From the IMG/VR virus record IMGVR_UViG_3300042922_001062, positions 1 through 64,000 of that record: 64,000 bases of DNA; one strand, written 5' to 3'. Shown one piece after another: positions 31,502 through 48,089 of the stretch (the first letter of the stretch is position 1; each line of letters starts with the position of its first letter). Origin of the DNA: a virus. The position numbers were made by a program, and so were the translations under genes. The notes beneath the pieces were generated by a model. It had not been told where the DNA came from. It worked only from the letters and a program-made list of their open reading frames with translations, and searched no databases.

Positions 31502-31526
31502 AGCCCGGCCGTGCGCCGGGCTTTTT
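31502..31526 (+). terminator. Rho-independent terminator just inside satellite attL
   Basis: AGCCCGGC-CGTGC-GCCGGGCT plus TTTT. Confidence 0.8.
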
Positions 31527-31629
31527 CGTTTCCGTAGTGTCCACAGCGTTCAAGAAAATCAATGGCTTACACGGGCACCCGGTGCCTCCATGCGACAAAT
31601 GAGCGACAACGTAATCGAGGGAACTGGCT

Positions 31630-31902: not shown

Positions 31903-32959
31903 CGCCAGTATGCTCCCGATCGTCACGGTGTCGAATGGCATCGTGATTGCCTCCAGCCGCGACGTGGCGGCCTATTTCGACGCAGACCATCGCGTGGTGC
32001 TGCTGGCGATCGATACGCTCATGGTTGAGGCCCCCGACGTAGCCGAGGCACACTTCCGCGAGCACCACGGCGAGGCCAGGCACTACGACATGACGCGCGG
32101 TGGCCTAGCGCTGCTGGCGCGCTCGCTGAGCGGTCCGCAGGTCGGGCGGTGGCGTGAGCGCTATCTCGAAGCCTTCGACCGCCAGCAGCGCGCGCTGGGG
32201 CAGGGCAGCGCGCTCTCGGTGCGTCAGCATCAGCCGAGTCCGTCGCCGGCGTTGGTGCCTGCCCTGCCGGACAACCTTGCCGATGGTGAGCCTCTCACGA
32301 TGTCGAGCCGGGAGATCGCCGACCTCACCGGCAAGGAGCACGACAACGTCCGCCGGGACATCAAGAACCTCGCGGATGGGCTTTCCCTCAGCTTTGAGGA
32401 AAAGTCCGAACCGTCGGCAGGCGGGCGCCCCTCGAAGGTGTTTCTCCTTCCGAAGCGTGAGTGCCTGATCCTCGTCTCGGGGTACAGCATCGAGCTGCGT
32501 GCCCGTATCATCGATCGCTGGATGGAACTTGAGGTGCGGCAGGCGGACCCGGTGGCGATGTTCAACCCGTCCGATCCGCGCATCGTGTCGGCCGTGCTGT
32601 CCCATTGGCATCAGGAGGCCACGACGGCACACGCAGCGCTTGCCAAGGCCGAGGGCACGCTGGCGCGGATCGAGACCACTGCCGGCTCTCTCTGCATCAC
32701 GGACGCTGCGAAGGCGCTCTCGCACCCGCCCAAGGCGCTGTTCGCCAAGCTCTACCGCAACCATTGGACCTATCGGCGCGGTGGCAAGGGCGATTGGCTG
32801 GGCCATGCCGACAAGTGCCGTGCCGGCCTGCTGGATCACCAGCCTACGACTTATCAGCGTGACGGCGAGACGGTGATCGGCACGCAGGTCGTCGTGACAC
32901 CCAAGGGATTGCGGAAGCTGGCCGAGCTGCTCGCTCACGATCCGGATTGGAGGGACTGA
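31895..32959 (+). CDS. Rha-family regulator with two Rha domains and a C-terminal ANT/KilA-C domain
   Basis: ASSRDVA..F...H and [31 protein letters not shown]; [16 protein letters not shown]. Confidence 0.8.
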
Positions 32960-33186
32960 TGCCCGACATCATCGACGTCGACTGGGAATGCTGTGACGCC
33001 GAGGGTGAATCCTTTGAGCACCACGCCGAGCCGGACAAGGTGGCGGAAGGCCTGCTGATCGACGAGCCAGTGCTGGTGCGCTACCCCAACGGCCGTATAG
33101 CTGATGGCAACCGCATCGTGGTGACGGAGCGTGGCCTGGAGGCGCTGAAGTCCTTCGTCATCGAGGAATCGAAGGGCAGCCACTGA
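32959..33186 (+). CDS. Small acidic hypothetical protein
   Basis: RBS GGAGG; TGATG coupling. Confidence 0.55.
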   Translation: MPDIIDVDWECCDAEGESFEHHAEPDKVAEGLLIDEPVLVRYPNGRIADGNRIVVTERGLEALKSFVIEESKGSH

Positions 33187-33377
33187 GGGGGGGAGGTCAA
33201 AAGGTCAGACGGCGTCCGTCTCTGGACCGGCGCCCCCTACATGCAGAGATTTTTTCCTCCCTGGACAAATTCGGGGTGCGTACCAGCGCCGCGTACTACG
33301 TAATATCCATATGATATCAGGCAGATAGCCTCGGTACGCACCCTGCGTACCGCGCGTACTAAGTGCGCACTGCGTAC
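33187..33377 (+). repeat. Satellite copy of the helper packaging site plus GCGTAC cluster
   Basis: 33224-33271 identical (48 bp) to 28000-28047; similarity continues to about 33297. Confidence 0.9.
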
Positions 33378-33482
33378 CACTGATAGCAGAGGCCCCGGGG
33401 GGGTATGCGGAACGTCAGGGACGCCCTTCTCTGCACCGGCGGCCTCACCAAAACTCTCGCAAAGCCAGATTGAGGTCCCGGA

Positions 33483-33854
33483 ATGTCTAATCTGGCTTCC
33501 GAGATGAGCTTCGCGGCGCGCGTCGATGAGCGCGAGCGGATGATGCTGCAGGCGATCAGCCATGCGGGATGGTGGATGTCGCCCGACGGCCGGATCGGCG
33601 AACGGGATGCCGCGGCGCTCCTGGGGTACGGACACCCGGATTCATTCCGGAACGCGAGACGTCGCGCGGATCCTGGTGGGTGGCCACGTGTATTTCGCCT
33701 CGGCGGGAACGGAAACAAGCTGACCTATCAGGTCCGAGATCTGGCGGAGTTCGTCGAGCGCAAAGCAAATCCGCCGGCCGAAACCTACGATATTTTCCGC
33801 AAAGTCAATCGCGCGGGATCGGCGCTCTCCGACGCCCGTCGTAAGCTTGCTTGA
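33483..33854 (+). CDS. Hypothetical HTH-like protein
   Basis: ERDAAALLG..SFRN.R..P......YQVRDLAEFV. Confidence 0.55.
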   Translation: MSNLASEMSFAARVDERERMMLQAISHAGWWMSPDGRIGERDAAALLGYGHPDSFRNARRRADPGGWPRVFRLGGNGNKLTYQVRDLAEFVERKANPPAETYDIFRKVNRAGSALSDARRKLA

Positions 33855-34903
33855 CCTTGATAAGGAGCGAGCTGATGCGCATCAATTCCGCCGGACACCT
33901 GCCCGCGATCATGGGCTTTCTCGCCCGGGCGCACCTTGCCGGTGTTTCGCCCTTGGAGATCGCGGCGAAGGATGGTGCTCCGCCCGACCTTCAGCTCCTC
34001 GTCAGGGCTGCGACCGGTGCCGTCATGCTCGGCGACGTCGCTGCTGCTGGCGCGCTGCGCGCGGCGGTCGAAACCTTCATCGGGACGCTGCGCGGGCGCT
34101 CCATATTCTACACGCTCCTCGCTGATGGCGCGTTCGTCCGCGCGCCGATCCGCACACGGCTCACAGCAGTCGAGAACGGCGTGGTCGCCTACGTCGTGAG
34201 CGAGGGGCGTGCGAAGCCGGTTTCGAGGATCGGGCTCGACGCCGCGGGACTGGAACGCGCCAAGGCCACTTCGCTCATCGTGCTGACGCGCGAGGCTGTG
34301 TACGCATCCTCGCCGGCGCTGCTCGACTTCCTGACCTCTGAGCTGCAGGGCGCGGTCTCGGCGGCCGTCGACGCGGCCTTCATCGCAAGGATCATCGACG
34401 ACGGCTCGCCGAGCCTCACGCCGACCTTCAGCGCGTCGGGAGCGGGCATCGACGACATCAGGTTTGACCTCCGGCGACTGCTCGACGCCGTGAACGTCAC
34501 GGGCAGCGGCCATCTGGCATGGCTGATGTCGGCAGACGTCGCGAACCGCCTCGCCGTGCTCGTGGAGCACTTTCCCGGTATGGCGCCGAACGGTGGGACA
34601 TTGCTCGAGCAGCCGGCCTTCGTTTCCGAGGCCATCGACCCGGGCTCGCTGCACTGCCTCAACGCCGCGTCGATCGCGGCGGACAGCGAGGCCATCATCG
34701 TGCGGTCCAGCGACGTCGCCAGCGTCGTTATGGATACCGCCCCAGCGCAGGACAGCTCCACGCCGGCGGCGACGCAGAACGTGTCGATGTTTCAAACCAA
34801 CTCGACCGCCGTGCTCGCGGAGGCGTTTTTCGGAGCGCAACGGGTGCGGCCGAACGCGCTGGCGACGCTGACGGACATCGCCTGGGGCGACGTGGCCTCA
34901 TGA
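33851..34903 (+). CDS. Satellite-encoded HK97-fold capsid protein homologue
   Basis: VSEGRAKPVS, WLMS, VSMFQTNSTAVLAE align with helper WVGEGKGKP, WVMS, VSMFQTNSVAFRAE. Confidence 0.85.
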   Translation: MTLIRSELMRINSAGHLPAIMGFLARAHLAGVSPLEIAAKDGAPPDLQLLVRAATGAVMLGDVAAAGALRAAVETFIGTLRGRSIFYTLLADGAFVRAPIRTRLTAVENGVVAYVVSEGRAKPVSRIGLDAAGLERAKATSLIVLTREAVYASSPALLDFLTSELQGAVSAAVDAAFIARIIDDGSPSLTPTFSASGAGIDDIRFDLRRLLDAVNVTGSGHLAWLMSADVANRLAVLVEHFPGMAPNGGTLLEQPAFVSEAIDPGSLHCLNAASIAADSEAIIVRSSDVASVVMDTAPAQDSSTPAATQNVSMFQTNSTAVLAEAFFGAQRVRPNALATLTDIAWGDVAS

Positions 34904-35727
34904 GCAGGGTCGATCCCGCTACCGCAGCAGCGCTGAATAAAATTGACGTCCGCGTCGCGGAGATCGACGCCGCGCTCAAACGCCTCGACGCTGATGACTA
35001 CAAGCACTTCAAAGATTTGCACCGCGCCGGTGCAAACGAGAAGGTGCGGCAGCAGCTCAACGCGGAACGCGCGGTGCAGATGCACAACCGGGCGCGGGTG
35101 CTCGCAGGCGAGCCGGTTGAACAGCCAGCACCCACGGAGCAGGCCAAGGCACTGCGGCTGCCGCCGGTGGAGCTCTATGGCAAGGCCGAGCGACCCTGCA
35201 GAATCGAGCCAGCCATTACCCGCAGAGACGACTTGGTCGGCGTTGGCGATAGAACCGCCGATGAGATTCTCGATGTCGCCGAAGTTGAAGAGCGCGTGTC
35301 AGCGGACATCGCGCAGGCGATCGAGGTCGCCCACGCCAAGATGCGGGAGGCAATGACGCGCAATCCCACGTACGCGTTCGACTTGTCGACGCTGATCATG
35401 CTGAAGACCACCATCATCCAGGCGATGGCGCAGGCGACAATCATCGAAGCCGTCGGCGGTGTGCTGCGGCGCGAGCTCGAGGTGAAGCTCACCGATCGGA
35501 TCGCAGTGCTGGAAAAGCGGATCGAGGAGTTTGAGCGCGGCGGCTTCGAGTATCGCGGCATCTATCAGCGCGCCCAAGCCTACAGACGAGGTCAGGTCGT
35601 CACCCATGACGGAAGCATGTGGGTGGCCGCCAAGGACACCGTGCTGCCGCCGGGCGCGCCGGAAGGCATGAACGAGTGGACTTTGGCCGTTAAGCGTGGC
35701 CGGGACGGGAAGGACGCCACCCGATGA
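34900..35727 (+). CDS. Satellite homologue of the helper post-portal protein C-terminal domain
   Basis: YRGIYQ..Y.RG..VTHDGSMW..WTLAVKRGRDGKD vs helper YRGVFK..GDTVTWAGSLW..WTLAAKRGRDGKE. Confidence 0.8.
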   Translation: MSRVDPATAAALNKIDVRVAEIDAALKRLDADDYKHFKDLHRAGANEKVRQQLNAERAVQMHNRARVLAGEPVEQPAPTEQAKALRLPPVELYGKAERPCRIEPAITRRDDLVGVGDRTADEILDVAEVEERVSADIAQAIEVAHAKMREAMTRNPTYAFDLSTLIMLKTTIIQAMAQATIIEAVGGVLRRELEVKLTDRIAVLEKRIEEFERGGFEYRGIYQRAQAYRRGQVVTHDGSMWVAAKDTVLPPGAPEGMNEWTLAVKRGRDGKDATR

Positions 35728-35943
35728 AAGAGCAAGCCGTCGCCCTAACGAAGCGGTGCGTTGCGGCCTTCGTCGAGAAGATGGGCAGGCAGCCGGATGC
35801 GCACGAGCTCGATCTGCTCGCTGCGGCCGCGTGCCGGCATCTCCAAGACCGCGAGCACATGCGCCGATGGCCCGCCGCGACGGCGTCCGGATCTTCCACG
35901 GTGAACTAGCTCAAGCCTAGACCTCATAGCCTTAGGTGAGGCG

Positions 35944-36234
35944 ATGCCAAACTCAGAGATGCTCACAACTTACTCCCATGGTACCGTTTCAGTGACCAAG
36001 GGATCAAAGACCGTCCGGGGCAAAGGCGTTTTCTGGCTGGACGTGCGGTCGTGCGACAGCCTCGAAGCCGGGGACCGCTGCCTCACCACCATCGCCTCAG
36101 TAGACGCGACCGATTTCACCACATTGGAGCTTGCTGTGCCTTGGTGCGGCGAGACAGCGGAGGACGTCCCTTACGTGATCCGCTTCGACGCTCCGCAGCG
36201 ATTTCCCGGCTACAGGGGGCGCGCCGATGGCTGA
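35944..36234 (+). CDS. Stand-alone tail-fibre N-terminal domain
   Basis: YS.GTVSV..TIAS..LELAV..DVPYV.RFDAP shared with 36227. Confidence 0.65.
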   Translation: MPNSEMLTTYSHGTVSVTKGSKTVRGKGVFWLDVRSCDSLEAGDRCLTTIASVDATDFTTLELAVPWCGETAEDVPYVIRFDAPQRFPGYRGRADG

Positions 36235-37324
36235 CCTCTACAGCACCGGCACCGTCTCGGTGCCCAGCGGTGGCACGACTGTTACGCTGACCGGGGGGCT
36301 CTTTAGCGGTGTTCTCGCCGGCGATACGATCGAGATCGGCGAGCTTCCCGCGAAGACGATCGCATCGCCGACCGACGCCAGTCATCTGGAACTGGCCGTC
36401 GCGGTGACGTCCGATCAGGTGGATGTCCCCTATGTGCTTCGCTTCGACGCCCCGTCGCGCTTCACCTCCGGCTATCTCGCGGAGCAGGTGCGGGCGCTGA
36501 TCGCGCAGGCGGGCATCATCAAGGCCGCCCGGCCAAACTACGAGGTGCAGAGCCTCGGCGGCAACGCACCGCCTGGCTCTCCTGTGACGGGAGACATGTA
36601 CGTCGTCGGCACCGCGCCGACCGGCGCATGGGCTGGGCGGGCGAATAATTTGGCGCAGTGGACCGGCTCGGCGTGGCTGTTCACAGCGCCGGATCGAGGA
36701 ACGACGGTCGTTAGCGTGGCGACGGGTATTGTGTCGATCTGGGGCGGCGCGGCGTGGCTACCTTACATAGGCCCTGGCGCTTTCATGCAGACGCTGATGC
36801 CGGCGGCGACGCAGGCCGCGGCGCAGACTACGCTTGGGCTCGATAGGGCCGCCCGCACGCTCTGGACGGCGGATATCTCCACTCCTGTCGCGGCGATTAA
36901 CGTCCCGCTCGCGGCGGCGTATCGGGCGTTCAAGCTGACCATCGGCTGCCTCACCGGCTCGGATGCGACAGCCAACTTGATACACCGCATCAGCCGCGAC
37001 GGGTCCACGGTCGACACGGGTGCATCGGACTATCAGGGGTCTGCGCTTGTTGTCGTGGGTAGCGGAGTTTCCGCGGCGGCGCGGACGGCGTCGGATGCGT
37101 TTCTCGGCACGTTGACGGCCACGATGGTAGCAATGGACATCACGCCTGGCGCGGCCGGTCTGCCGTACATGTGCACTTCCCAGTCTATGGAGTTCGCCTC
37201 TGGATATCGTCTTGATTTCCGCGGTACCCGTGCCGCGAATGTCGGGCGCGCTCAGTTCATCCAGATCTACCCGTCAGCCGGCAATCTGACTGCTGGGACG
37301 CTGACGCTGGCCGGGTATCCGTGA
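36227..37324 (+). CDS. Tail fibre / receptor-binding protein with DUF2793
   Basis: APPGSPVTGD.YVVG..PTGAWAG....LA.W...AWLF.AP. Confidence 0.75.
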   Translation: MADLYSTGTVSVPSGGTTVTLTGGLFSGVLAGDTIEIGELPAKTIASPTDASHLELAVAVTSDQVDVPYVLRFDAPSRFTSGYLAEQVRALIAQAGIIKAARPNYEVQSLGGNAPPGSPVTGDMYVVGTAPTGAWAGRANNLAQWTGSAWLFTAPDRGTTVVSVATGIVSIWGGAAWLPYIGPGAFMQTLMPAATQAAAQTTLGLDRAARTLWTADISTPVAAINVPLAAAYRAFKLTIGCLTGSDATANLIHRISRDGSTVDTGASDYQGSALVVVGSGVSAAARTASDAFLGTLTATMVAMDITPGAAGLPYMCTSQSMEFASGYRLDFRGTRAANVGRAQFIQIYPSAGNLTAGTLTLAGYP

Positions 37325-37370
37325 CGCCCGCCGCCGGGCTTCGAGGTGGTGGCTCGGCGGTCAGATATGA

Positions 37371-37396
37371 AAAAGGCCGCCCCGAAGGGCGGCCTC
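37371..37396 (-). terminator. Terminator of 37410..37727
   Basis: AAAAAGGCCGCCCCGAAGGGCGGCCT. Confidence 0.7.
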
Positions 37397-37409
37397 TCTC
37401 ACCGTCCGG

Positions 37410-37727
37410 CTAGCACGGTGTCTGCTTATTGGTGCAATCGCGACGGCCGTCATCCGAATTGCCGCTGCCGGCGGCCTTGGCCTCGCCGGGGTTCATGGAG
37501 TTGTTGCGCCCCTCGCTGGGCATGGTCGATTTCGGCACACCGGAGCCAACGGCCGGGGACTGGTCCTTGTAGCGGCTCTCGGTGGTGCCCGAGCTATTGT
37601 CGGAGCCGGTTGTAGCTCCCGCCGTGGAACCCGAGTTCCCTTGGCCGCTGCTCTGGGCCATCACAGGTGTGCCGAGCGCCAGTAATGCTGCCAGCGTGGC
37701 GATGGAAGTCGTCTTGGCATAGTTCAT
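37410..37727 (-). CDS. Small secreted low-complexity protein (moron)
   Basis: Signal peptide (..LLALGTPVMA); RBS GAAGGAGG. Confidence 0.7.
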   Translation of the reverse strand: MNYAKTTSIATLAALLALGTPVMAQSSGQGNSGSTAGATTGSDNSSGTTESRYKDQSPAVGSGVPKSTMPSEGRNNSMNPGEAKAAGSGNSDDGRRDCTNKQTPC

Positions 37728-37751
37728 GAGTTCCTCCTTCGATATGAGGCG

Positions 37752-37776
37752 AACCCACAGCTCTAGATGACGTTCC
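37752..37776 (-). promoter_or_regulatory. EcfG-type promoter
   Basis: Minus strand GGAAC-N16-GGTT. Confidence 0.65.
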
Positions 37777-37941
37777 GACCAAATTGGCCGCTGAGGTACA
37801 CGGCTAATGCACCTCGCGCCAACGTGAGCACTTTCCTGCCAGGCGGCTATGTCGATTTATTCCTTCCGCGAATCGTCAATCATCGCCTCGATGGCCCCGA
37901 TCATCACTTCGAGGTCGGCGATCAGATGCAGTAACGATTTG

Positions 37942-38055
37942 CTCGACTTCCGCGGCACCCGCATCGCCAATCCAGGCCGTGCGCAGTTCATCCAGATATA
38001 CCCGTTCGCCGGTAATCTGGCAGCCGGCCCTCTCACGCTGAAGGACATTCTGTAG
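37942..38055 (+). pseudogene. Relic second copy of the tail fibre 3' end
   Basis: LDFRGTRIANPGRAQFIQIYPFAGNL vs LDFRGTRAANVGRAQFIQIYPSAGNL. Confidence 0.8.
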
Positions 38056-38066
38056 GAGCATCTCAC

Positions 38067-38504
38067 ATGAACATTCTGGACGTCGACGGCGTGATCAAGC
38101 CGGCCGACCCCGCCTGGATCGCCCAGCGCGCGCTTGACGCCCTCCCGGTGGCTCCGACGCCAGCGGACGTCATCGCCGAGCGCGAGCGGCGCCTGGCCCT
38201 CGGATTCGCCTACGACTTCGAAGACGAACGCGGCGTGCACCACATCGCGACCACCCCGGAAGACATGAAGGGCTGGGACGAGGTGACCATGCTCGCCAAC
38301 GCCGCCATCAATGCCGGCGTGGCGGCGACCGAGATCCTCATCCTCACCAGCACCGGCCCGGTCACCGTGACGGCCGCCGAGTGGCAGCAGGTGCTCCTCG
38401 CCTCGGCGAACTTCCGCCAGCCGATCTGGCAGACCAGCTTCGCGCTGCAGGCGATGGACCCGATCCCGGCTGACGTCACCGACGACGTGCACTGGCCGGA
38501 TTGA
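38067..38504 (+). CDS. DUF4376-like tail fibre assembly protein
   Basis: DV.AERERRLALGF..PIPAD..DD.HW; RBS AGGAG. Confidence 0.65.
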   Translation: MNILDVDGVIKPADPAWIAQRALDALPVAPTPADVIAERERRLALGFAYDFEDERGVHHIATTPEDMKGWDEVTMLANAAINAGVAATEILILTSTGPVTVTAAEWQQVLLASANFRQPIWQTSFALQAMDPIPADVTDDVHWPD

Positions 38505-38708
38505 CCTCCCAAGCGCCGCACGGTCATGACCGCTCGAGTTGATGGGCCGCGCTTGGTCTATTCGGGCACGAGGAAAGCCCAGCAGAATCCTGATTATCCA
38601 CCACTGGCCGGAAGAGATCGGAAAGGCCGCTGGCCACGGCAGTAGCGGCTTGAACAAGTCTCGCCCGGCGCGCCACAATTGCGGATGGGCATCCGAATCT
38701 GTACCGAC

Positions 38709-39356
38709 ATGCAATGCGTCGTCGACTGGCTCTACACGTGGCAGACGCTCATCTCGGGCGTGTTGGCACTGGGGGCGGCGGCGATGACTGTGGGGCTTCT
38801 GCGGATCCAGATCGAGGACGAGCGCGCCCGACACCGTTCCCAGCGGATAGCTAAGACATTGGCGGCCCGAGCGACGTTGCCAGATGCCCTGAGCGACATC
38901 GCGCGATACACCCGGGAGTGCATGGCTTATCTCGTCGGCAAGCGAGCCGAGCCACCGTTGGCGCCGGCCGACGGGATAGCCGCGATCAAGGGCGCAATTG
39001 AATTCTGCGATGGCGACCCGGCCACCGCTCTCTTCGCTCTCGCCAGCTATTATCAAGTCCAACGAGCCCGGCTGGCGGAACATCGAGTTCGCCGAGGTCC
39101 AGAAAATCTGGACCGAATGCGAGATTGTGCGCACCTCAGAGCGCTGAGCGATCGGCTATTCGATTACGCTCGAGGAGAAGGCCTCGATGTTCGGACGGGT
39201 CGGCCGGATCCTGAAGAAGTTGTGAGGGCACTTGGCCAGATCGTCGGGCCTGGACCCATGATGACTCGTCCGAACGAACGTGCTCGGCTCGAGGCCTGGA
39301 TAAGAGGCACTCCCTTACGCCCCGACGACGAAGATGAGGCCGAGGAAGACGAGTAG
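38709..39356 (+). CDS. Membrane-anchored hypothetical protein
   Basis: WQTLISGVLALGAA TM segment. Confidence 0.6.
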   Translation: MQCVVDWLYTWQTLISGVLALGAAAMTVGLLRIQIEDERARHRSQRIAKTLAARATLPDALSDIARYTRECMAYLVGKRAEPPLAPADGIAAIKGAIEFCDGDPATALFALASYYQVQRARLAEHRVRRGPENLDRMRDCAHLRALSDRLFDYARGEGLDVRTGRPDPEEVVRALGQIVGPGPMMTRPNERARLEAWIRGTPLRPDDEDEAEEDE

Positions 39357-39566
39357 ACGTCGGCTTGGCGGGTGCTCGCCTCCACGGTCTCTCTCGATCC
39401 CCGATGCCGCCGAATTGACACTGCTGCCGATCATGATGAACGTGTAGTGGCGGCGTAGGCGCCATGCCGGGCGAGAGCCTCGGCCTGGCCCTGCAGATCC
39501 TGACGGCTTTCCTATTCGGAGCGGAACAGGAGTAGGGACTGCCTCAGAGAATCTTGATTTACGTCC

Positions 39567-39632
39567 CTATAGTCCGGCCGCCTTGCGGAGCGCGGCATTG
39601 ATGCGATCCTGCCAGCCTGGCCCGTCCGAAGA
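39567..39632 (-). pseudogene. BrnA-like antitoxin C-terminal remnant
   Basis: Reads DGPGWQDRINAALRKAAGL-stop; no start codon, in-frame stop upstream. Confidence 0.65.
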
Positions 39633-39647
39633 CGAACCTTAGTTCGT

Positions 39648-42077
39648 TCAGGCAGCCGCAGGCTTTTGCCGAGCCACGTACATTGCCATAGGCACGCACG
39701 GCAAATGGTGATTCGAGCTCGACATGAGGAGCAATCGGTTCACGTTGTTGTCCTGGAACCCGCCGATCCGTATCACCGATTGCAGCCATCCGATGGAATG
39801 CGGCACTCTGGCCTTCTTGATAAGGCGTTGGATGGCTGTCCTACTTCGGGAATGTCGCGCCGCCAATTGCGCTTCGAAGTTTGGCTTCACTTCTTCCGCC
39901 TTCAGAGACTTTAGGTAGTTGAACGTGCGACGGATCACCGATCGGAACTCGACGAATTCAGGTGCTTCTCTCAAGCTAAGGATATCGTCGCACTGGGTCG
40001 GAAACTCCAGTGGGGCTGACCGGATGTCTGCCGCAAGCGAATGTAGCGTCGATGAAGTTCCCAAATAGCGGCGGTTCAAAGCTGCGTTCAGCTCCAGCCA
40101 ACGATGCTTGCTGTCAGTGAGGATCTGCGCCCCCGTGGCTTGCGCCAAATACATGGCGATTTCGAAGTTGGGTGCCAACTTCATGAGCTGGATCTGTCCA
40201 CCTGTTTCGGGAGCCAAGCTCTCCGGTTGGAGCACGGCAAGCGGGTCGGCCTCTCGGAGCTGGCCGATTTGCGGCATCAGTTCGTCGAGATCGACTGTTT
40301 CGCCCTGCGGCATTGCTCGAGCGATCTGATTGCGTAGCCCCTCTTCGGACAAAGCGAGGAGTGTGCGCTTGAAGTCGTCGCGCATCAGTTCCTCCATCCG
40401 AGGGTCGTTTGAAATCTCGAACTCAAGGCCGGATGCCCGCGCCCTGGCCATCGCCATCATTTGATCGCGCAGGTGGATGTCGAAGTCACAAGGATCGGGG
40501 ATCAGGTTGACCAGACCCGCCTCGACCAACGGCATCATGCTCACGAAGAAATGGATCGTCTTCAACAGTTCGCCCCGGTACTGACCCGGGTGCTCGGTCG
40601 GACGGAATTTCTTATTCAGGGTGCCGGGGTGGACGAAAGGGTGCTGAATCAGCATTTCACCGAAATACAGCGGCGAACCAATCGCGAATTCGTTGATGTG
40701 CTGGGGATGGAGGGAGCCGGTATAGACCGATCGAAGCTGCCCGTCCGGCTTTGGGAGTAAGTCGAGCAGGTCGGTTTCCAGTGGCCATAGGCCTTCGTAA
40801 AGGCTATAGGCACTTGCAATCTTTTCGTCGGTCATCTCGCGCCGAACTTGGGTCCAGTCCTTTCTGTCCAGTTCAAGGAGGTTCGACAAGCCGCGGAGAA
40901 GCATAAGGTTTCGCTCGCGGATGCTCCTAGCCGTCCAGCTCGGCCTTAGCTCGGATGGCTTCGGCTCGCAGCATCTGGCGAAGAGGTCGCCGGACCCACA
41001 ACCACAAGAGTCCTTCGGTTTCAGCGGTGACACCGGCAGATCCTTTTGAAGGAACGCGCGCGGCTTTTCTGACCGGCCAAACTCATCCTGATAGTGAACA
41101 TGTCCGCTGTCGAATTTGGCAAACATTTCACCGCCAAAAAGGTGGAGTTCGGTCTCTGGTGGTCGTAGTGTCTCCCGCAACTCCTTCCAAGATTTCTTCA
41201 CCGTTTTCTCTGGATAAAGCCATGCCTCGCGTCCAGCAGCGATGTATCTTTCGGAGCGAGCCTTGAGGATGAAGTTGATCTCCGAGACTTGTTGATCATC
41301 GAGTTCGCGAGACCGGATGAAATCGATCGTCGATACCATCGTCGGATGAAAGTTCCGAGCGAAGGTCCGGTTCTCAAGCGGATTCACGTCCGGGTTCTTT
41401 GCATACTCAAGATTTGTCAGGATCAGGCAGTGGTCTGGTCCCAGAGGGAAGATGGTCTGCGAACCTTTCCATGCAATTGCCGGATCGTCGGTTTGGTCGC
41501 AACCAAGGTCTGCGGGAGGAGCAGCATAGTTATAAATCGTTACCGGATGGTCGGTAATGATGAACTTGACAGAGGCATTTCCCGCCGAGACAATCTCCCG
41601 GACGCCAGTGGTCCAAATGGTACAATTGAGAAAACGAATACCCTGCATCTCAAGCATAAGCTCATTCTGGGAAAGCTCAGGGTACTGTCGCTTTAGCCAC
41701 TCTAGGCCCTTTGGAGTGCGAAGCTTTTGGATGTCGATATACTCGAAAAAGGTCTTGAAGTGGGAGTGCCATGCGGCCTTGTCCAAGCCAGAGAGGGCGC
41801 GGACCGCGTCCGCGCCGCGGGTGTCAATGTCGCCGAATAGTTGTCGCTCGATTTCATCGTTTACCGCCGTTCCAAAGAATGTTGAATAAAGATCCCTTTG
41901 AACGAACGCACGGGATGTTGGAGAGTCAAACAATGACCGCCCTGTGTTTTTTCCTCCATCCCTCCGTGTGAAAATCGGCGGTGACAAGTCGAGATAGAAT
42001 AAGGTTCTGCCTCCGTCGGTGAGGAAGCGTTCTTGATACCATTGGGGAACGTAGTGATTATTTCTTCTTACTGACAT
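39648..42077 (-). CDS. DUF4238 plus SEC-C motif protein (candidate anti-phage)
   Basis: NNHYVPQWY, FIITDHPV, IFPL.PD.CL; CGCGSG..F..CC; lower GC. Confidence 0.75.
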   Translation of the reverse strand: MSVRRNNHYVPQWYQERFLTDGGRTLFYLDLSPPIFTRRDGGKNTGRSLFDSPTSRAFVQRDLYSTFFGTAVNDEIERQLFGDIDTRGADAVRALSGLDKAAWHSHFKTFFEYIDIQKLRTPKGLEWLKRQYPELSQNELMLEMQGIRFLNCTIWTTGVREIVSAGNASVKFIITDHPVTIYNYAAPPADLGCDQTDDPAIAWKGSQTIFPLGPDHCLILTNLEYAKNPDVNPLENRTFARNFHPTMVSTIDFIRSRELDDQQVSEINFILKARSERYIAAGREAWLYPEKTVKKSWKELRETLRPPETELHLFGGEMFAKFDSGHVHYQDEFGRSEKPRAFLQKDLPVSPLKPKDSCGCGSGDLFARCCEPKPSELRPSWTARSIRERNLMLLRGLSNLLELDRKDWTQVRREMTDEKIASAYSLYEGLWPLETDLLDLLPKPDGQLRSVYTGSLHPQHINEFAIGSPLYFGEMLIQHPFVHPGTLNKKFRPTEHPGQYRGELLKTIHFFVSMMPLVEAGLVNLIPDPCDFDIHLRDQMMAMARARASGLEFEISNDPRMEELMRDDFKRTLLALSEEGLRNQIARAMPQGETVDLDELMPQIGQLREADPLAVLQPESLAPETGGQIQLMKLAPNFEIAMYLAQATGAQILTDSKHRWLELNAALNRRYLGTSSTLHSLAADIRSAPLEFPTQCDDILSLREAPEFVEFRSVIRRTFNYLKSLKAEEVKPNFEAQLAARHSRSRTAIQRLIKKARVPHSIGWLQSVIRIGGFQDNNVNRLLLMSSSNHHLPCVPMAMYVARQKPAAA

Positions 42078-42134
42078 TGCCCTTTAGCATCGCTCCCGCC
42101 GCTAGTTGCTGCAATTCTTACCGGCTTGGGCGAA

Positions 42135-43397
42135 TTAAGGATGGCCTCGCAGCGCGATCATCTTGTTCGCGACACGGGCGGCCAAGTCGGAATGAAACTC
42201 CTCAAGGCTCTCCGCGGCTTCGATGAGGGCTTCGTCGGCACCGTCATCGTCCATCGCTTCGACCAGCTGCTCGACCTGTTGCGCAAGCTCTTCGAGCGCC
42301 TGATAGAGCCGGGTGCATTGGTCCAGAGTGAGCGACGGGTCGGCGAGGGCAGCGGGGACATCCTTGGCGAGATGCTTCGCCCTCTCGCCGCGCTCGCGCA
42401 GCAAAGTCATCCAGTCCGTCGCCATGTCGACGCGCTCCAGCAAAGCCGTCAGCTCCGCCCGTTTCAGGGTCGCCTCGATAGTGGTCTCCTTCAACGCAGG
42501 TCCGCCGGGGCGGTGGGGGGACGTGACGGCCGCCCGAACGGCCAGTGCGCTCGATGGTGGCGCAGCGCCGATCGTGGCCATGAAATCCCCTTCGGGCACG
42601 ATGCGCACGATATGGCCGGCGGCGAGCATGGCTTCGGCCTTGAGGTGCTTCGCGCTCTTGGGCGTGCCGAAATGCACGTCTCGATCGCCGAGCACGAGCA
42701 TGGTGGTGTGGCGGGTGACGCCCGGATGAACGTCGGCGCCAGCGGCCGCGGCAAGATCGGCCGCGGCGCTCTTGCCGAGCTCCAGCTTGCCGGTGAACAC
42801 CACGACCTGGCCCGACAACGGCCCGTCGCCGACAGCCTCTCGGCGGATCGGAGCCGCCTTCTCGCCGGAGACCGGCAGTTCAACGCGGCGGAACCAGCCG
42901 TCCAGGTCCAGGCCGGTTTCTTCCATGGCGCGGTGCAGGATCACGCCGGCGGCGCGCGCGTCCTCAAGAGCGTCGTGGTGACGGAAGGCGATGCCGAACT
43001 CGGCGGCAATGATCGGCAGGCTGTAGCTCGCCCTGTCGGGCCATGCCCGCCGGGCGACGCGGATTGTGTCGAGCCAGCGGTTGCCGACGGATGCCAAGCC
43101 ATGGCGATCGCAGGCCCGCATCAGCGACGTCCGGTCGAAGGGTCCATGGCTGATAACGGGCCGGTCACCGAGAGCATTGAGAAGCCAGTCGTGCCGGTGG
43201 CGGAAGGGCAGGCACCCCGCGACGGCTTCCTCGTCGATGCCATGAATGCCGACGTTAAAGGCGTCGAAATAGTCCTCCGGGTCGATGAGGTGACATTCGG
43301 CGTGGATCTCTCTGCCGCCATCGAACACGACGACGCCAAGCTGGCAGATGCTGCTGTAGTTCGCGTTCGCGGTTTCTACATCGATCGCGACGAACAT
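42135..43397 (-). CDS. DEDDh 3'-5' exonuclease with BRCT domain
   Basis: FVAIDVETAN, HHDALEDA; GQVVVFTG.L..VT..TT.LV.G. Confidence 0.85.
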   Translation of the reverse strand: MFVAIDVETANANYSSICQLGVVVFDGGREIHAECHLIDPEDYFDAFNVGIHGIDEEAVAGCLPFRHRHDWLLNALGDRPVISHGPFDRTSLMRACDRHGLASVGNRWLDTIRVARRAWPDRASYSLPIIAAEFGIAFRHHDALEDARAAGVILHRAMEETGLDLDGWFRRVELPVSGEKAAPIRREAVGDGPLSGQVVVFTGKLELGKSAAADLAAAAGADVHPGVTRHTTMLVLGDRDVHFGTPKSAKHLKAEAMLAAGHIVRIVPEGDFMATIGAAPPSSALAVRAAVTSPHRPGGPALKETTIEATLKRAELTALLERVDMATDWMTLLRERGERAKHLAKDVPAALADPSLTLDQCTRLYQALEELAQQVEQLVEAMDDDGADEALIEAAESLEEFHSDLAARVANKMIALRGHP

Positions 43398-43468
43398 GGC
43401 TCCCTCCCATACCTTCCGGAAGGTTGCACATCGGCTCCGTTCACGGCAAGCGCGCCTGTTCTGCGACG

Positions 43469-44317
43469 CTACTCGGTGAGCAGCCCCGCCAAACGCCCCT
43501 TTGCGATAAGATAGCTAACAAAGGAAGCGCACGCTCCCAGCATGAACAACGCGTCAGCCTCGTCGACGTTCGCGGCGTCTTGGTCGAGCAGCGAGTGCCG
43601 TATGCCTTTCTCGTCGCTGGCATAGCCATAAAGGGCCGAGAATCCTTTCTTCATTGCCTCGTGGATGGCGCCAGCCTTTTCCAGTTTGACCAGAGCGGGG
43701 CCAAGTGTAGTCGATCCCGGCGCTAGCTGTACTGCGACCGCTTCAACAGCATGGATAGCTTCGCGCACGCAGTCCGGATACTTTCCTGCAGTGGCAGCTT
43801 CTATCGAGGACCTCAAATGGGCATAGGCGCCGGTGATGCCGACAGCGCGTGCGGACTTGAGTGCTGCTTCGAGAGCTGCAGCCTCCGTCGGATCGGTTAT
43901 GGGGGCAATAGTATCCCCGTCGACCACGCGATAAGCTGCGTGACAATTAACTAAAACGTCGGCAATATGCTTGCGGAATGCGGCTGGCGTATAATTGAAT
44001 CTTAGTATCCATTCAATAAATCCAAAAACTTCTACGTAGTCGCCGTTCTCTATAATTGTCTGAATTCGTCGTATTTGTTGAAAGTGCAAAGAAATGTATT
44101 CACTAGAGAATCTATTTTGATGAAATACAAACTCCGCCTTGAGAATTGCATTCCATGGCTCGGCAACGGTGTGGTCGCCGCGCCTTGGAAGAACATGCAT
44201 GTCGAACACGAAGAACAATTGAGCCCTCAGTTGAGGGGAAAGTTTTTTCAAGGCGAGTTGCGTTGGTAACGGTGCGCGACCTTCGGCTTGCTCAAAGGAG
44301 ACTAATTTCCTGTCCAT
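43469..44317 (-). CDS. AbiJ-like N-terminal domain plus HEPN-like protein (candidate abortive infection)
   Basis: SFEQAEG..LR..L, EVFGFIE, REAIHAVE, LYGYASDEKGIRHS; AT-rich. Confidence 0.6.
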   Translation of the reverse strand: MDRKLVSFEQAEGRAPLPTQLALKKLSPQLRAQLFFVFDMHVLPRRGDHTVAEPWNAILKAEFVFHQNRFSSEYISLHFQQIRRIQTIIENGDYVEVFGFIEWILRFNYTPAAFRKHIADVLVNCHAAYRVVDGDTIAPITDPTEAAALEAALKSARAVGITGAYAHLRSSIEAATAGKYPDCVREAIHAVEAVAVQLAPGSTTLGPALVKLEKAGAIHEAMKKGFSALYGYASDEKGIRHSLLDQDAANVDEADALFMLGACASFVSYLIAKGRLAGLLTE

Positions 44318-44346
44318 GATCCGCCCCACTTCCAATGCGTGGCAAC

Positions 44347-44549
44347 CTGCCATTGGAGTACCGGCAGCGCAATGAGCGCCTTCGCGATCCCCTCTTGGCG
44401 GAGGGGGCGAAGCAGCGCATAAATGGGATTGGGCTTGAACACCCGGACGAAAGTTATAGCGCGACGCCCTTGGCGGGGCTTGGCGCCGAAGCACAGCGCC
44501 CTTGGCGGGGCGGTGTGCAAGGTCGCACCTTGGCGGGTGCGCCGGACCT
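44347..44549. ncRNA. Candidate structured RNA: four hairpins with TTGGCG loops
   Basis: Hairpins at 44389-44406, 44466-44479, 44491-44518 and 44524-44541 have different stems and the same loop. Confidence 0.6.
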
Positions 44550-44694
44550 GGCCATCATGGCCGGGAGCGGTGCGCTATGTCCAGAGGGTACGCCCTTAAA
44601 AGCGCGTCGGCCTGTAACTTTCGCAGGTGTTCAACTCCCGGCTGCCGGTCTGCTACCGGCGACGGCCTTGAACAGCCGAACGAAAGTACATCCC

Positions 44695-45090
44695 ATGAAC
44701 ATGAACGCCAGCCGGCCGAGACCGGCCAGCATCCCACCGACCGAGGTCGCGCGGAAGCTTCTCGACATCCGTCACGACCTCCAGCGCGAGCTTCAGCGCG
44801 TGGACACCCTGCTTGCAATGCTCGGCGCCCCGGTGGCGGCGGCAGGGTGTCAGCCGGACACTCCGGCGGGACGTGGCCCCAATTTCGGGGAGACGTCGGC
44901 GAGTGATCTCCTCTATGGAGCGCCAGCCATTGCGGGCTATCTTGGCCTTACCGAGAAGCAGGCCCGGCACCGTATCGAGGCGGGGAATATTCCGGCCTTC
45001 AAGATCGGCGGCACGGTGTGCGCCCGCCAATCCTCCCTGTCCACATGGCTCGCGAACCTCGAAGCCGCAGCCGCGCATGCGGAGGACTGA
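44695..45090 (+). CDS. Excisionase-like HTH protein, paralogue of 31630
   Basis: LLYGAPAIAGYLGLTEKQARH..IPAFKIGGTVCAR. Confidence 0.7.
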   Translation: MNMNASRPRPASIPPTEVARKLLDIRHDLQRELQRVDTLLAMLGAPVAAAGCQPDTPAGRGPNFGETSASDLLYGAPAIAGYLGLTEKQARHRIEAGNIPAFKIGGTVCARQSSLSTWLANLEAAAAHAED

Positions 45091-45092
45091 TC

Positions 45093-45344
45093 ATGCTGGT
45101 GGATCATGATTTCGGCGGACTGCTTCCGCCGGCAAGCGTCGATCGCATCGCCACGCGCCGCGCGCTCGCGTCGATCATCGAGCGGGCGCTCGCGCTGCGG
45201 GATGCCCTCGATGATGACGCCGATCTTGAGGAGTGCGGCGACGCCGAGCCCAGCCTCGGTGCATCGGAGGCAGGCGCGCACTTCTGGTCTCAGATCGGAT
45301 GGGCGAGGGGAGGCGACGGCGACCTTGAATGGGGGGGGTCATGA
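45093..45344 (+). CDS. Small acidic hypothetical protein
   Basis: RBS GGAGG; DALDDDADLEE..AEPSLG. Confidence 0.55.
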   Translation: MLVDHDFGGLLPPASVDRIATRRALASIIERALALRDALDDDADLEECGDAEPSLGASEAGAHFWSQIGWARGGDGDLEWGGS

Positions 45345-45760
45345 CCGTGCGCTCTATGCTCTCGGTGGTCGGGGGAACTGACCTCGCGGAGGGTATGCCC
45401 AAATTTGGGGGTACCCCCTTCCGCTCCTCCAAGGTGTTCATCAACCCCGACTGGTCGGCCATCTGCCACGCACTGGAAGGTATCGACCCTGAGCACCTCC
45501 AGACGGCGCCCATAGCGTCGCTGGTGGCCGGTATGGAGGCGCGCCTGCGGTTCTGCTGCCAGACGCTCTCCCTGCCGTCCTACGCGTGGCAGGAGGGCCA
45601 TACGGCCATAGCGAAGTGCCTCGACGATGCGTCGGCGCTCTCCGACTTCGCGGCGCAGTGGGGAATCTCCACAGACTGGATACTACTAGGGGACGCCCGC
45701 TCCTATGTTCGGGTGCGCACCTTCGGCGCCGCCGGTAGCATCCGCTGGGCCGCTGACTGA
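45341..45760 (+). CDS. Hypothetical protein with XRE-like C-terminus
   Basis: FAAQWGISTDWILLG. Confidence 0.5.
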   Translation: MTVRSMLSVVGGTDLAEGMPKFGGTPFRSSKVFINPDWSAICHALEGIDPEHLQTAPIASLVAGMEARLRFCCQTLSLPSYAWQEGHTAIAKCLDDASALSDFAAQWGISTDWILLGDARSYVRVRTFGAAGSIRWAAD

Positions 45761-45891
45761 CTATCCGCCCGGCGCCGCCTCGCGCTGGCGCCGGGCATTT
45801 CGATACGACATGAGAATTTCATCAAGGCATTGAGCATGCTGGGCTTTCCCGGGCTTCCTAAAGCTGCATGCGACAACCGAGGCAAATCACC

Positions 45892-47190
45892 ATGGCGAGT
45901 GTTCGCAAGCGCAAGTGGATCCACAACGGCAAAGAGGGTGAAGCGTGGGTCGTCAACTATACCGACCAGGGGGGCAAGCGCCGGCAGAAGGCTTTCGACC
46001 GGAAGAAGGAAGCCGACGCTTATCGGACGGAGATCGAAGCGGAGATCAAGCAGGGAGTGCATACTGCTCTCAACGAGAGCGTGAAGGTCTCTGAGGCCGT
46101 GCGGGCGTTCTGCGTCGACTGCCAGAAGCGCGTGACGGCAGGAACGATGACGAATGGAGGATTCAAGAGCTACCGATGGAAGCTCGAAAAGTACGCAGTG
46201 CAGAAGTTCGGCACCCGCAAGGTTTCCACGATCACGGCTGAGGAGGTGCAAGATTGGGTGGACGAGTTGCTGCGGACGCTGTCGCCGACCTCTGTCACGG
46301 GCATCTACGTGGCCTTCGGCGTACTGCTATCGTTCGCGGTCCGGCGCCGTTGGGTGCGTAGGAACATCCTGCGGGACATGCCGTGCAAGCTACCGGCAAG
46401 GCCAAAGCGCAAGGCGGTGCCGACCAAGGCAGATATTTTGGCCCTGATGCACGCCGCATCTACGATGGAGCGCGGCGAGAACCTCCTGACGTTCGTCAAT
46501 CGGCTGGTCGTTGTGGCCTGCGGCGTGTTCGGCGGCTTCCGCCCTGGAGAAACGTTCGGCCTTCAATGGGAGGACGTCGACTGGCAGAAGGGCGTCATCC
46601 ACGTCCGCCACAGCCACACTAAAATGGACGGGCTGAAGGCGCCCAAGACCGAGGCGGGATATCGCGATGTTCCAATAACCGCCCCCATTGATCGGGCCTT
46701 GCGGCAGTGCGCGCGCTACTGGACGATCCGCCGGCTTGCTGAAGGGCCGGGTTTCGGCAGCGATCACCCGAAGGCGATCTTCTCGCGGATCGCGCGCATG
46801 TGGGAGGGCGAGTTTATCGCGGTGCGGCCGGAGGACCTGAAGGGGTTCGTAATCCTGACCAAGGTGGGCAAGCCGATGACGGCGACGGCGAGCGCAACGA
46901 CGTTCTGGTCCCGGCTGATGAAGGCGGCGGGCCTGCAAACGGAGGACGGGAAGAACCGCTTCACGCCGCACGCGCTGCGCCACGCCGCGGCGAGCCTGCT
47001 TATTGAGGCGGGTCTCGACGACATGAACCTGAAGCGCTTCATCGGGCACGCCTCGATCCAGACGACGAAGGATATCTACGGGCACCTTTTCCCGACAGAC
47101 GAACGGATGGTTGCAACAACGGCAGCGATTGCGCGCGATCTGGACGCAACAACAGAGCGACAAACATCTGTAAGGCACCCGCTGCAATAG
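45892..47190 (+). CDS. int: Satellite tyrosine integrase
   Basis: GFRPGE, PKT, HALRH, IGHASIQTT.DIYGH; stop 7 nt before attR. Confidence 0.93.
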   Translation: MASVRKRKWIHNGKEGEAWVVNYTDQGGKRRQKAFDRKKEADAYRTEIEAEIKQGVHTALNESVKVSEAVRAFCVDCQKRVTAGTMTNGGFKSYRWKLEKYAVQKFGTRKVSTITAEEVQDWVDELLRTLSPTSVTGIYVAFGVLLSFAVRRRWVRRNILRDMPCKLPARPKRKAVPTKADILALMHAASTMERGENLLTFVNRLVVVACGVFGGFRPGETFGLQWEDVDWQKGVIHVRHSHTKMDGLKAPKTEAGYRDVPITAPIDRALRQCARYWTIRRLAEGPGFGSDHPKAIFSRIARMWEGEFIAVRPEDLKGFVILTKVGKPMTATASATTFWSRLMKAAGLQTEDGKNRFTPHALRHAAASLLIEAGLDDMNLKRFIGHASIQTTKDIYGHLFPTDERMVATTAAIARDLDATTERQTSVRHPLQ

Positions 47191-47197
47191 GAAAAAT

Positions 47198-47215
47198 ATT
47201 CCTCCGCCCGATGAC
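47198..47215 (+). repeat. attR core of the satellite
   Basis: ATTCCTCCGCCCGATGAC. Confidence 0.95.
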
Positions 47216-48089
47216 CATCGTCGGCCGCTTCGGCACCGGCAACATCCCGGCGCTGACCCGCATCCCCTTCCGGGTGCCGCTGATCTCGGAGACCTCCGAG
47301 AGCGACGCCCAGTGGGTCGGTGAGGGCAAGGGCAAGCCGCTGACCAAGTTCGGTGTCGGTCGCACCGAGCTCACTCCCCTGAAGATCGCCACCATCGCTG
47401 TCCAGACGATGGAACTCATCCGCGACAGCTCGCCGTCTTCGGACGTGCTGGTGCGGAACTCGCTGGCGAAGGCCATCGCGAAGCGCACCGACCTCTCGTT
47501 CATCGATCCGTCCTCGGCGGCTTCCGCCGGCGTCCGCCCGGGTTCGGTTCTGAATGGTGTCGCCGCCACGGCGAACAGCACGGCCACGGGCGCCGACGGT
47601 GTCCGCGAGGATGTCCAGGCGATCATTGGCGCCTTCGTGGCGGCGAACAACCCGCTGCAATCCGGCGTCTGGGTGATGTCGGCGACCTACGCGCTTCGGC
47701 TCATGATGATGCTGAACCCGCTGGGCCAGCGCGAATTCCCCGGCATCACGATGCAGGGCGGCACCTTCTTCGAGCTGCCGGTCATCGTGTCGAACTACCT
47801 CGGCGACTACGTAGCCCTGGTCAATGCCGAGGACATCTGGTTCGCCGATGAAGGCGGGGTCGACGTCGCCATGTCGACTGAAGCGTCGCTGGAGATGGTG
47901 GACAACCCGACGCAGGACAGCGGCGCCGAAACTCCGGTCGATTCCGAGATGGTGTCGATGTTCCAGACCAACTCGGTCGCCTTCCGCGCCGAGCGCACGC
48001 TGAACTGGGCGCGCCGCCGCTCCAGCGCGGTAGCGTGGATGGACAACATCACCTGGAGTGATCCGGCCGAAGAGAGCGCCGGCGTCTGA
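47211..48089 (+). pseudogene. 3' part of the helper major capsid gene
   Basis: WVGEGKGKP, SMFQTN..AFRAER; joins in frame with the 5' part across the repeat. Confidence 0.9.

Follow-up and report, generated by a model that had tools for sequence, protein, structure and literature searches.

Why would a short intergenic region of a viral genome contain four hairpins that differ in their stems and share exactly the same loop? This question is raised by IMG/VR virus record IMGVR_UViG_3300042922_001062, of which positions 1 to 64,000 were analysed (this whole stretch of 64,000 nucleotides is called here the window, and coordinates refer to it unless another locus is named). The original prediction placed four hairpins with the loop TTGGCG (UUGGCG in RNA) in the divergent gap between an AbiJ-like gene and an operon encoding a helix-turn-helix (HTH) protein and an integrase, and regarded them as a candidate regulatory RNA of a satellite. 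Both the hairpins and their location are confirmed in the sequence. Judging from the window and its relatives, three of the hairpins (A, B and C) belong to the untranslated leader (~270 nt, ~44430-44694, + strand) of the excisionase-like/integrase operon. This leader probably works like the antisense-RNA immunity switches CI of P4 and c4 of P1, lying ahead of the excisionase-integrase operon and using the three hairpins as a docking array.

Hairpins of the window and their relatives

The hairpins of the locus are the following (A, B and C are hairpins 2, 3 and 4 of the original prediction):

44372..44420, + strand: hairpin 1; inner stem-loop CCCCTC-TTGGCG-GAGGGG at 44389-44406, loop TTGGCG at 44395-44400, outer stem 44372-44385/44407-44420
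44466..44479, + strand: hairpin A; GCCC-TTGGCG-GGGC, loop at 44470-44475
44491..44518, + strand: hairpin B; GCACAGCGCCC-TTGGCG-GGGCGGTGTGC, stem of 11 base pairs, loop at 44502-44507
44524..44541, + strand: hairpin C; CGCACC-TTGGCG-GGTGCG, stem of 6 base pairs, loop at 44530-44535; the most conserved of the trio
44550..44562, + strand: hairpin D; GGCC-ATCAT-GGCC, with an A/T-rich loop, directly 5' of the CI-like domain described below; possibly a processing site or the -10 box of a minus-strand promoter

The hexamer TTGGCG occurs 71 times on the two strands of the window (50 +/- 7 times in shuffled sequences). Five copies on a single strand within 141 nucleotides (nt), that is, ~60 times the window average by arithmetic from this count, hence represent a strong local excess; the fifth copy (44480-44485) is outer-stem sequence of hairpin A and forms no loop. 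Within the 79-kb IMG/VR record, the 10-mer CCTTGGCGGG is restricted to three hairpin sites. It showed no enrichment in five host genomes that contain the element (147 matches versus 104 in the reversed control) and, in consequence, it is not a genome-wide or dispersed repeat; a reading of the hairpins as repetitive extragenic palindromic (REP)-like or genome-wide repeats was dropped for this reason. As for the complementary CGCCAA near 31828, proposed earlier as a partner of the loops, it starts at 31829, lies inside a small HTH-like open reading frame (ORF) and is just one of the 71 hexamers found at chance level.

Relatives were sought in two ways: (i) viral contigs were searched for two copies of CCTTGGCGGG 10-30 nt apart, which returned more than 119 loci, most of them coding tandem repeats that were set aside, and ~20 of them with the layout of the window, i.e., three TTGGCG-loop hairpins whose stems differ, at intervals of ~33-36 and ~29-32 nt, with a highly conserved block after them; and (ii) viral contigs and bacterial genomes were searched with a second pattern, the conserved block without the loops, which added members from viral contigs and from Mesorhizobium, Devosia, Neorhizobium, Oryzicola and other alphaproteobacterial genomes. 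Loci L152, L206, L191 and L208 come from strains of Mesorhizobium, Devosia enhydra (ATCC 23634), Neorhizobium alkalisoli and Oryzicola mucosus. With an nhmmer profile, the matches numbered 45, of which 38 were non-identical sequences of full length. Alignment A1, with 36 sequences, is the basis of all the pairing, covariation and loop counts given here. A covariance model of the core had matches in 7 of the 151 genomes of the order that were sampled, a sporadic occurrence of the kind expected from a mobile element.

Among these relatives, the pairing of hairpins A-C amounts to 93.6%, and each of the 15 pairs tested has compensatory changes, with both sides altered; such values were not attained in any of 500 shuffles, and slid controls reached 33-49%. 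The loop is TTGGCG in 31 (A), 29 (B) and 33 (C) of the 36 members, and in 12 (A), 9 (B) and 13-14 (C) of the 16 members ascertained without the loop in the search pattern. The selection on RNA structure proposed from the window is thus borne out by its homologues, where the stems covary and the loop is conserved. Regarding the strand, the local helices contain 122 G-U versus 15 A-C oppositions (16 versus 4 in the three hairpins alone), an excess which indicates that it is the + strand that folds as RNA.

Architecture of the leader

In P4, the CI RNA, processed from the leader, pairs with two sites named seqA and seqC, which leads to premature termination (PMC4825925). The leader of the window can be divided into the following segments:

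44431..44455, + strand: segment (a), seqA-like target; hairpin GGG-CTTGAACA-CCC with heptamer a1 (44435-44441) in its loop, then a2 (44450-44455)
44558..44661, + strand: CI/c4-like domain; compact fold of ~90-100 nt at 44558-44651, then hairpin F (44645-44659)
44559-44569 with 44635-44643, + strand: closing helix of the domain, covarying GGCCGGGRG with CYCCCGGCU
44577-44584, + strand: invariant ATGTCCAG, which together with TAAAA belongs to the first arm of the domain (in RNA form, invariant AUGUCCAG and UAAAA)
44610-44634, + strand: segment (b); hairpin 44610-44628 with b2 (44615-44621) in its loop, then single-stranded b1 (44628-44634)
44663..44688, + strand: segment (c), seqC-like target; hairpin CGGC-CTTGAACA-GCCG with c1 (44668-44674), then c2, GAAAGTA (44682-44688)

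Segment (c) is a second copy of (a); b1 is complementary to a1 and b2 to a2, and (b) thereby complements both (a) and (c). This three-way complementarity is maintained among the 36 members: pairing amounts to 87.6% for a:b, with 105 double-change cells, and to 90.6% for b:c, with 96, values which none of 500 shuffles reached and which slid controls (~27-50%) do not approach. As many as 18 different a1/b1/c1 heptamers are found. In all members c2 (of the GAGA, GAAAG or AAGAG type) ends 5-10 nt 5' of the ATG, a position that identifies it as the Shine-Dalgarno region. The CI-like domain lies between the inferred start (~44430) and the ATG at 44695, on the same strand, again in 36 of 36 members. 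Its consensus fold, obtained with RNAalifold and accompanied by covariation, has a long closing helix that encloses two hairpins and then a single strand, which precedes the 3' strand of that helix, an arrangement shared with the Rfam consensus of C4; the covariance model of the domain, R1, scores 90.7 bits on the window. Folding predicts a:b pairing in 28 of the 36 leaders and, when (a) is masked, b:c pairing in 27; masking lowers the number of unpaired Shine-Dalgarno-like bases from 3.3 to 0.6 of 6.

As judged from the alignment, the specificity determinants are segments (a), (b) and (c), not the UUGGCG loops. The earlier suggestion of an RNA-based immunity or excision switch of the P4 kind thus stands as regards the layout ahead of the HTH-integrase operon, and it has to be modified as regards the pairing, which was expected to run through the loops.

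Two other interpretations of the leader were considered and rejected: (i) segments (a), (b) and (c) as three promoters, since the hexamers are not suitably spaced and the copies covary as partners in pairing; and (ii) a leader peptide starting at the invariant ATGTCC, since the length of hairpin E varies by non-multiples of 3 and neither frame nor stop is conserved.

Hairpin 1 stands apart from the other three. Only the closest relative, L010, has it at the same position, where other members have a GC hairpin with other loops, or have one 8 nt further upstream (L066, L110). Its loop hexamer is located 17-18 nt 5' of CATAAAT (44418-44424), and the aligned relatives have TTGTCA, TTGACG or TTGCAT upstream (a -35 box of the TTGnnn type), ~16-17 nt before a TAnnnn box which is followed by the GGG of (a). 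A promoter scan of the region made no call at this -35/-10 site. We infer that hairpin 1 is promoter-region sequence upstream of the leader RNA, with a loop that coincides with the likely -35 box. The grouping of the four hairpins in one RNA is, hence, retained for A, B and C, and abandoned for hairpin 1, which lies upstream of the inferred start.

Proposed mechanism

In a lone transcript, (b) would pair with (a) and, in this way, the ribosome-binding site in (c) would be left free. Once the processed CI-like RNA has accumulated, it would occupy (a) and (c) of newly made transcripts; with (c) occupied, translation of the first gene would be blocked, transcription might stop early, and excisionase and integrase would be off. 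The 18 heptamers would then correspond to distinct immunity specificities.

Several observations weigh against this proposal. The Rfam models C4 (RF01695) and c4-a1b1 (RF03163) gave no match at E<=10 on 44380-44720. Model R1, in turn, scores the P4 CI locus with 10.3 bits (E 0.6, rank 4), so that common descent with C4 is not demonstrated. Some compact relatives end in a terminator and have no segment (c); the output may accordingly be termination rather than translation. With respect to the loops, no conserved same-strand CGCCAA was found within 800 nt of them and no CGCC near the start codon, and the CGCYA stretch discussed below as their candidate partner lies partly within a predicted helix. 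Finally, the excess of G-U over A-C is small in a:b (22 versus 15) and in b:c (19 versus 11), which makes their covariation, taken alone, compatible with three DNA copies of an operator.

That last point also speaks for an explanation at the DNA level: (a), inverted (b) and (c) would be operators for an element-specific protein, and the TTGGCG palindromes would be protein sites, cruciforms or single-stranded DNA hairpins of an origin or recombination site. The operators of heteroimmune phages likewise change together in all copies, and the hairpins are ~three helical turns apart. Such an explanation is, nevertheless, highly improbable. The variable heptamers are found in small hairpin loops and in a single strand, as parts of a covarying fold that has its counterpart in P4 CI and seqA; (c) overlaps the ribosome-binding site in every member; and the local helices strongly favour G-U over A-C. 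Besides, the palindromes have asymmetric, constant centres and variable arms, contrary to what a dimer-binding site would show; the distance to the att site is 2.7 kb, and no gene for a replication initiator adjoins the locus.

Role of the UUGGCG hairpins

If specificity in the proposed RNA switch resides in (a), (b) and (c), the question of what the identical loops are for has to be answered separately. They stay TTGGCG over the 18 heptamer specificities. Diverged relatives keep (a) and the CI-like domain, and their spacer is a terminator (L128) or one unrelated hairpin (L137, L249-L258); L125 and L131 have, of the trio, hairpin C alone, with the loop YUGRCG. Since the spacers of these compact relatives have either none of the trio or C alone, the trio is, by this comparison, a derived module of one subfamily, with hairpin C as its oldest part. 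One genome of the same order (G096) contains five copies of the compact type (L251, L255, L256, L257 and L258) that differ in their a1/b1 heptamers; they consist of the (a) hairpin, one other hairpin, the CI-like domain, a terminator made up of a hairpin and a U-run, and the canonical Shine-Dalgarno sequence AAGGGAG, with no (c).

The trio could be a mere structured spacer or folding timer that separates (a) and (b), resists Rho or RNases, or aids excision of the CI-like RNA, its loop sequence being kept for hairpin stability or by descent through duplication. It does stand where a terminator hairpin is found in P4 and L128, and a single unrelated hairpin in other compact relatives, and four members (L216, L127, L129 and L167) have lost the loop motif of A or B and keep the remaining leader. 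A spacer function of this kind is rather unlikely, given that the stems diverge freely while six loop bases are fixed in three hairpins, 36 members and 18 specificities: divergent stems with fixed loops are the mark of sequence-specific recognition, not of stability. UUGGCG is not known to be an extra-stable loop.

A second alternative starts from a promoter on the opposite strand:

44554..44583, - strand: sigma-70-like promoter match, TGGACA-18 nt-CATGAT, for a putative countertranscript across C, B and A

YUNR U-turn loops are a common scaffold for the first contact between sense and antisense RNAs (PMC3834814), and the hairpins might be contact loops of this type: a minus-strand countertranscript would run across C, B, A and (a), with UUGGCG kissing CGCCAA as in ColE1 RNA I/II or IncI. 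It would start from the minus-strand site, of the form TGGACA-17/18 nt-CATAAT-like and internal to the conserved block, proceed toward the leftward cargo genes, face the leader promoter with an overlap of ~115 nt, and control the leader or the leftward operon. The promoter scan does find the site (2 matches in the region versus 0.1 in shuffles), its -35-like ATGTCCA is invariant, hardly any variation is seen in the A/T-rich loop of hairpin D, which lies in GC-rich surroundings, and the genes upstream of the leader are mostly on the minus strand. However, several compact relatives without the trio keep ATGTCCAG with a spacing of 19-20 nt, and in L128 and L137 the spacing is 17 nt and the -10 hexamers are poor; as ATGTCCAG is kept despite the altered promoter spacing, its conservation is better explained at the RNA level. 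Moreover, a cis-antisense RNA is complementary by construction, which leaves the identity of the loops, their invariance in the family and the double change described below for L130 unexplained, and the hairpin stems themselves favour folding of the + strand. Control by a countertranscript is, on balance, doubtful without being negligible.

In the preferred P4-like switch, the UUGGCG trio would be a docking array for a single shared trans-acting partner, either a protein or a CGCYA stretch, and the docked partner would tune the folding, maturation or recruitment of the antisense RNA. That there would be one shared partner is suggested by three facts: (i) the three loops are identical; (ii) they are constant over 18 specificities; and (iii) in L130 (11924-12199, - strand) the loops of A and B have changed together, both being CTGCAA on unrelated stems (the C loop is TTAGCG). 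This concerted change hints at a co-evolving partner. One candidate is found at 44573-44577, where the conserved internal loop of the CI-like domain contains a CGCYA stretch that varies only by C/U changes which preserve the pairing with UGGCG; the variant C loops of L130 and L124 fit this pairing, and the loop of L131 does not.

Far less probably, the trio is a sensor array for a host-shared RNA of cellular or helper origin, namely (i) an uncharged G73 tRNA, whose 3' end ...CGCCA would be recognized through UGGC:GCCA in a T-box-like manner; or (ii) a heterologous c4-type RNA with (C/U)GCCAA. If this were true, starvation, or the state of a phage residing in the same cell, would be coupled to excision and induction of the element. 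Concerning tRNAs, a tRNA-Asp(GTC) gene with encoded CCA is present at 1127-1203, near the left end of the record; its 3' end, CGCCA, complements UGGCG, and the gene is probably the host attachment site of a large prophage.

Genetic context

The leader is part of an integrative element whose relevant features are listed below:

31437..47216: integrative satellite-like element of 15.7 kb, bounded by direct repeats TTCCTCCGCCCGATGAC (17-18 base pairs) at 31437-31454 and 47199-47216
43469..44317, - strand: AbiJ_NTD4-domain gene, divergent; variable cargo, unlinked to the RNA family
44695..45090, + strand: first operon gene, encoding 131 amino acids with a C-terminal HTH_17/excisionase-like domain
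45106-45381 and 45329-45760, + strand: two small operon ORFs
45868-47190, + strand: tyrosine integrase gene, ending just before the right repeat

Between the repeats, the element carries a Rha/KilAC antirepressor gene, its own capsid-like gene, a DUF2793 tail-fibre-like gene, an exonuclease gene, a DUF4238 gene, the AbiJ gene, the switch and the integrase gene. The capsid-family gene (PHROG major head protein) and the DUF2793 gene are located at 33851-34903 and 36227-37324, and the possession of its own capsid-family gene points to a capsid-encoding, satellite-like element rather than to a plain island. At its start, a Phage_capsid ORF (47211-48089) overlaps with the right repeat, and the element looks as if it were inserted in the capsid gene of a host phage. 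Just inside the left end, upstream of the Rha/KilAC gene, a small ORF (31631-31903, + strand) encodes an AlpA/excisionase-type HTH-like protein. The Rha domain begins at residue 167 of ORF 31802-32959, and the true start of the antirepressor is probably later than that of this ORF.

The flanking genes of the window are shared with L010 alone among the relatives. Upstream of the leader, the genes vary: AbiJ occurs in the window and L010 only, and the remaining members have HNH endonucleases or otherwise unknown genes. Downstream, the integrase closes the operon in the window, L010, L052 and L104. The first downstream gene is a member of an uncharacterised family that is represented in Rhizobium, Shinella and Mesorhizobium. 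Its acidic proteins (L052:8254-8853, L069, L118, L104, L007 and the N-terminal half of window 44695-45090) have the motif ERLIxxLDxxD ... D/E-rich ... EPSLG(W), and neither Pfam nor PHROGs had a match for those of L052, L069, L118, L104 and L007. A similar N-terminal helix occurs in the window and L010, fused there to an HTH_17 domain; a search of the viral-contig loci with the 131-residue HTH protein of the window returned no relative. Searches of the relatives' flanking genes with Pfam and PHROGs disclosed no shared RNA-binding candidate.

This variability bears on the proposal, already present in the original prediction, that the hairpins are the repeated RNA antitoxin of a type III toxin-antitoxin system whose toxin is the adjacent AbiJ/HEPN-like gene. 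The AbiJ_NTD4 gene does adjoin the leader, and the units repeat at 32 and 28 nt. Nonetheless, nearly all the relatives have unrelated genes upstream; the RNA invariably runs in the same direction as the downstream operon, to whose start codon it is joined, and, as the prevalence of G-U over A-C also indicates, it lies on the other strand from the AbiJ gene; and the stems differ, so the hairpins are no tandem copies of one unit. An antitoxin role is so improbable that it can practically be set aside.

Implications

RNA-only immunity of the P4 CI/P1 c4 type, in which a stable small RNA is set free by processing, with RNase P acting at its 5' end, and confers immunity in trans, is known mainly from enterobacterial phages and from the Rfam models made of them. 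Here, the same logic would apply to at least 45 leaders of Rhizobiales-type prophages and satellite-like elements, which the Rfam models leave undetected and which would guard an excisionase-integrase operon. The 18 putative lock-and-key specificities offer a natural set for studying the evolution of heteroimmunity, and the invariant UUGGCG module points to an additional shared input, protein or RNA, beyond those of the classical systems. Furthermore, a covariance model of the family would improve the annotation of alphaproteobacterial mobile elements.

Comparison with known systems

The loop itself recalls the repZ leader of ColIb-P9 (IncI-alpha/IncB), whose rUUGGCG loop is subject to antisense control by Inc RNA. 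In both cases, an mRNA leader displays this hexanucleotide in the loop of a hairpin, and the likeness is one of loop sequence only: the window has three such loops instead of one, no rep gene and no CGCC partner adjoining the ribosome-binding site. The idea of an RNA-controlled replicon, derived from this likeness, finds no counterpart in the operon, in which no replication gene follows the leader: it consists of the HTH/excisionase-like gene, two small ORFs and the integrase gene.

Infernal searches with Rfam models, recommended at the outset together with covariation analysis, gave no match at threshold in the 64-kb window, in 43000-46000, in 44380-44720, in 15 related loci or in the compact relatives; it was the covariation across relatives that proved strong. 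C4 had no match at E<=10 in the whole record (its gathering threshold is 45 bits), and the resemblance to c4-a1b1 is limited to the GGG-loop-CCC hairpin. The best match, sRNA-Xcc1 (RF02221), reaches 22.3 bits (threshold, 53) and covers, with its full model, exactly 44559-44651; the compact relatives reach 29.8-30.6 bits with it, below the same threshold. The domain shares with sRNA-Xcc1 the closing helix, the two hairpins and the single strand. This family comprises integron- or island-borne small RNAs of Xanthomonas and Xylella, for which neither target sites nor a hairpin trio are described. In Xylella, copies of sRNA-Xcc1 adjoin matches of C4 and isrK (RF01394) (PMC12189769), and this side-by-side occurrence suggests that the three Rfam families are related.

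The STAXI motif of Weinberg et al. (2010) resembles the trio in being a structured unit, usually present in three repeats, near integrases and sometimes near c4 antisense RNAs (PMC2864571); it differs in its pseudoknots and in its frequent UUCG loops, and the STAXI model of Rfam had no match at E<=10 in 44380-44720.

In the immI region of P1/P7 (a1b1 - c4 - a2b2 - icd - ant), the order of elements is the same as here, and heteroimmunity arises by matched changes of antisense RNA and target, to which the 18 heptamer types of this family would correspond. The controlled genes differ between the two, and no single strand of the antisense domain is complementary to the UUGGCG loops; pairing involves other stretches, which are variable. 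In the Rfam consensus of canonical c4 systems, the loop of the target hairpin is UUUGGCAG, close to UUGGCG, and the single strand of c4 is UGCCAA; in view of this consensus, the UUGGCG hairpins may descend from target loops of the a type.

The closest parallel is P4, in which the leader of the PLE operon has the order seqA - CI RNA (seqB) - seqC and where Rfam locates C4 at 8420-8507 (74.9 bits), c4-a1b1 at 8653-8705 and isrK at 8615-8692. The P4 sequence has GTGAGAAC..TTCACAGG upstream (seqA), a CCTGTGAA loop and a TTCTCAC single strand in CI, and GTGAGAAC..TTCACAGGAGG-ATG downstream (seqC), as a copy on the Shine-Dalgarno sequence. P4 and the leader of the window are alike in the following respects: (i) a same-strand antisense RNA lies within the leader, with two-part complementarity upstream and downstream of it; (ii) there is overlap between the downstream copy and the Shine-Dalgarno sequence of the first ORF; (iii) the seqA hairpin, CGGG-CGTGAGAA-CCCG, resembles the (a) hairpin of member L004, GGGTGTGAGAACCC, both of the GGG-loop-CCC type; (iv) the CI strand TTCTCACCCCCG matches the (b) strand of the family, TTCTCACCCCCCGG; (v) in both antisense domains, a long closing helix is combined with two hairpins and with a single strand that ends in CCCC; and (vi) the carrier is a satellite-like integrative element. 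At 8515-8530 (- strand) of P4 (L247), ~15 nt before the 5' end of CI RNA, CATTATGCC resembles the CCATTATGGCC found just before the CI-like domain, which may reflect a shared processing context or coincidence.

Unlike in P4, the first arm of the domain is enlarged, with the invariant internal loop of AUGUCCAG and UAAAA; three UUGGCG hairpins, instead of a Rho-independent terminator, separate the seqA-like from the CI-like part; the operon encodes an excisionase-like protein and an integrase instead of replication proteins; and the hosts are Alphaproteobacteria. Taken together, these comparisons assign the leader, on sequence grounds, to an uncatalogued variant that would be functionally like P4 CI and P1 c4 and that stands outside the Rfam families.

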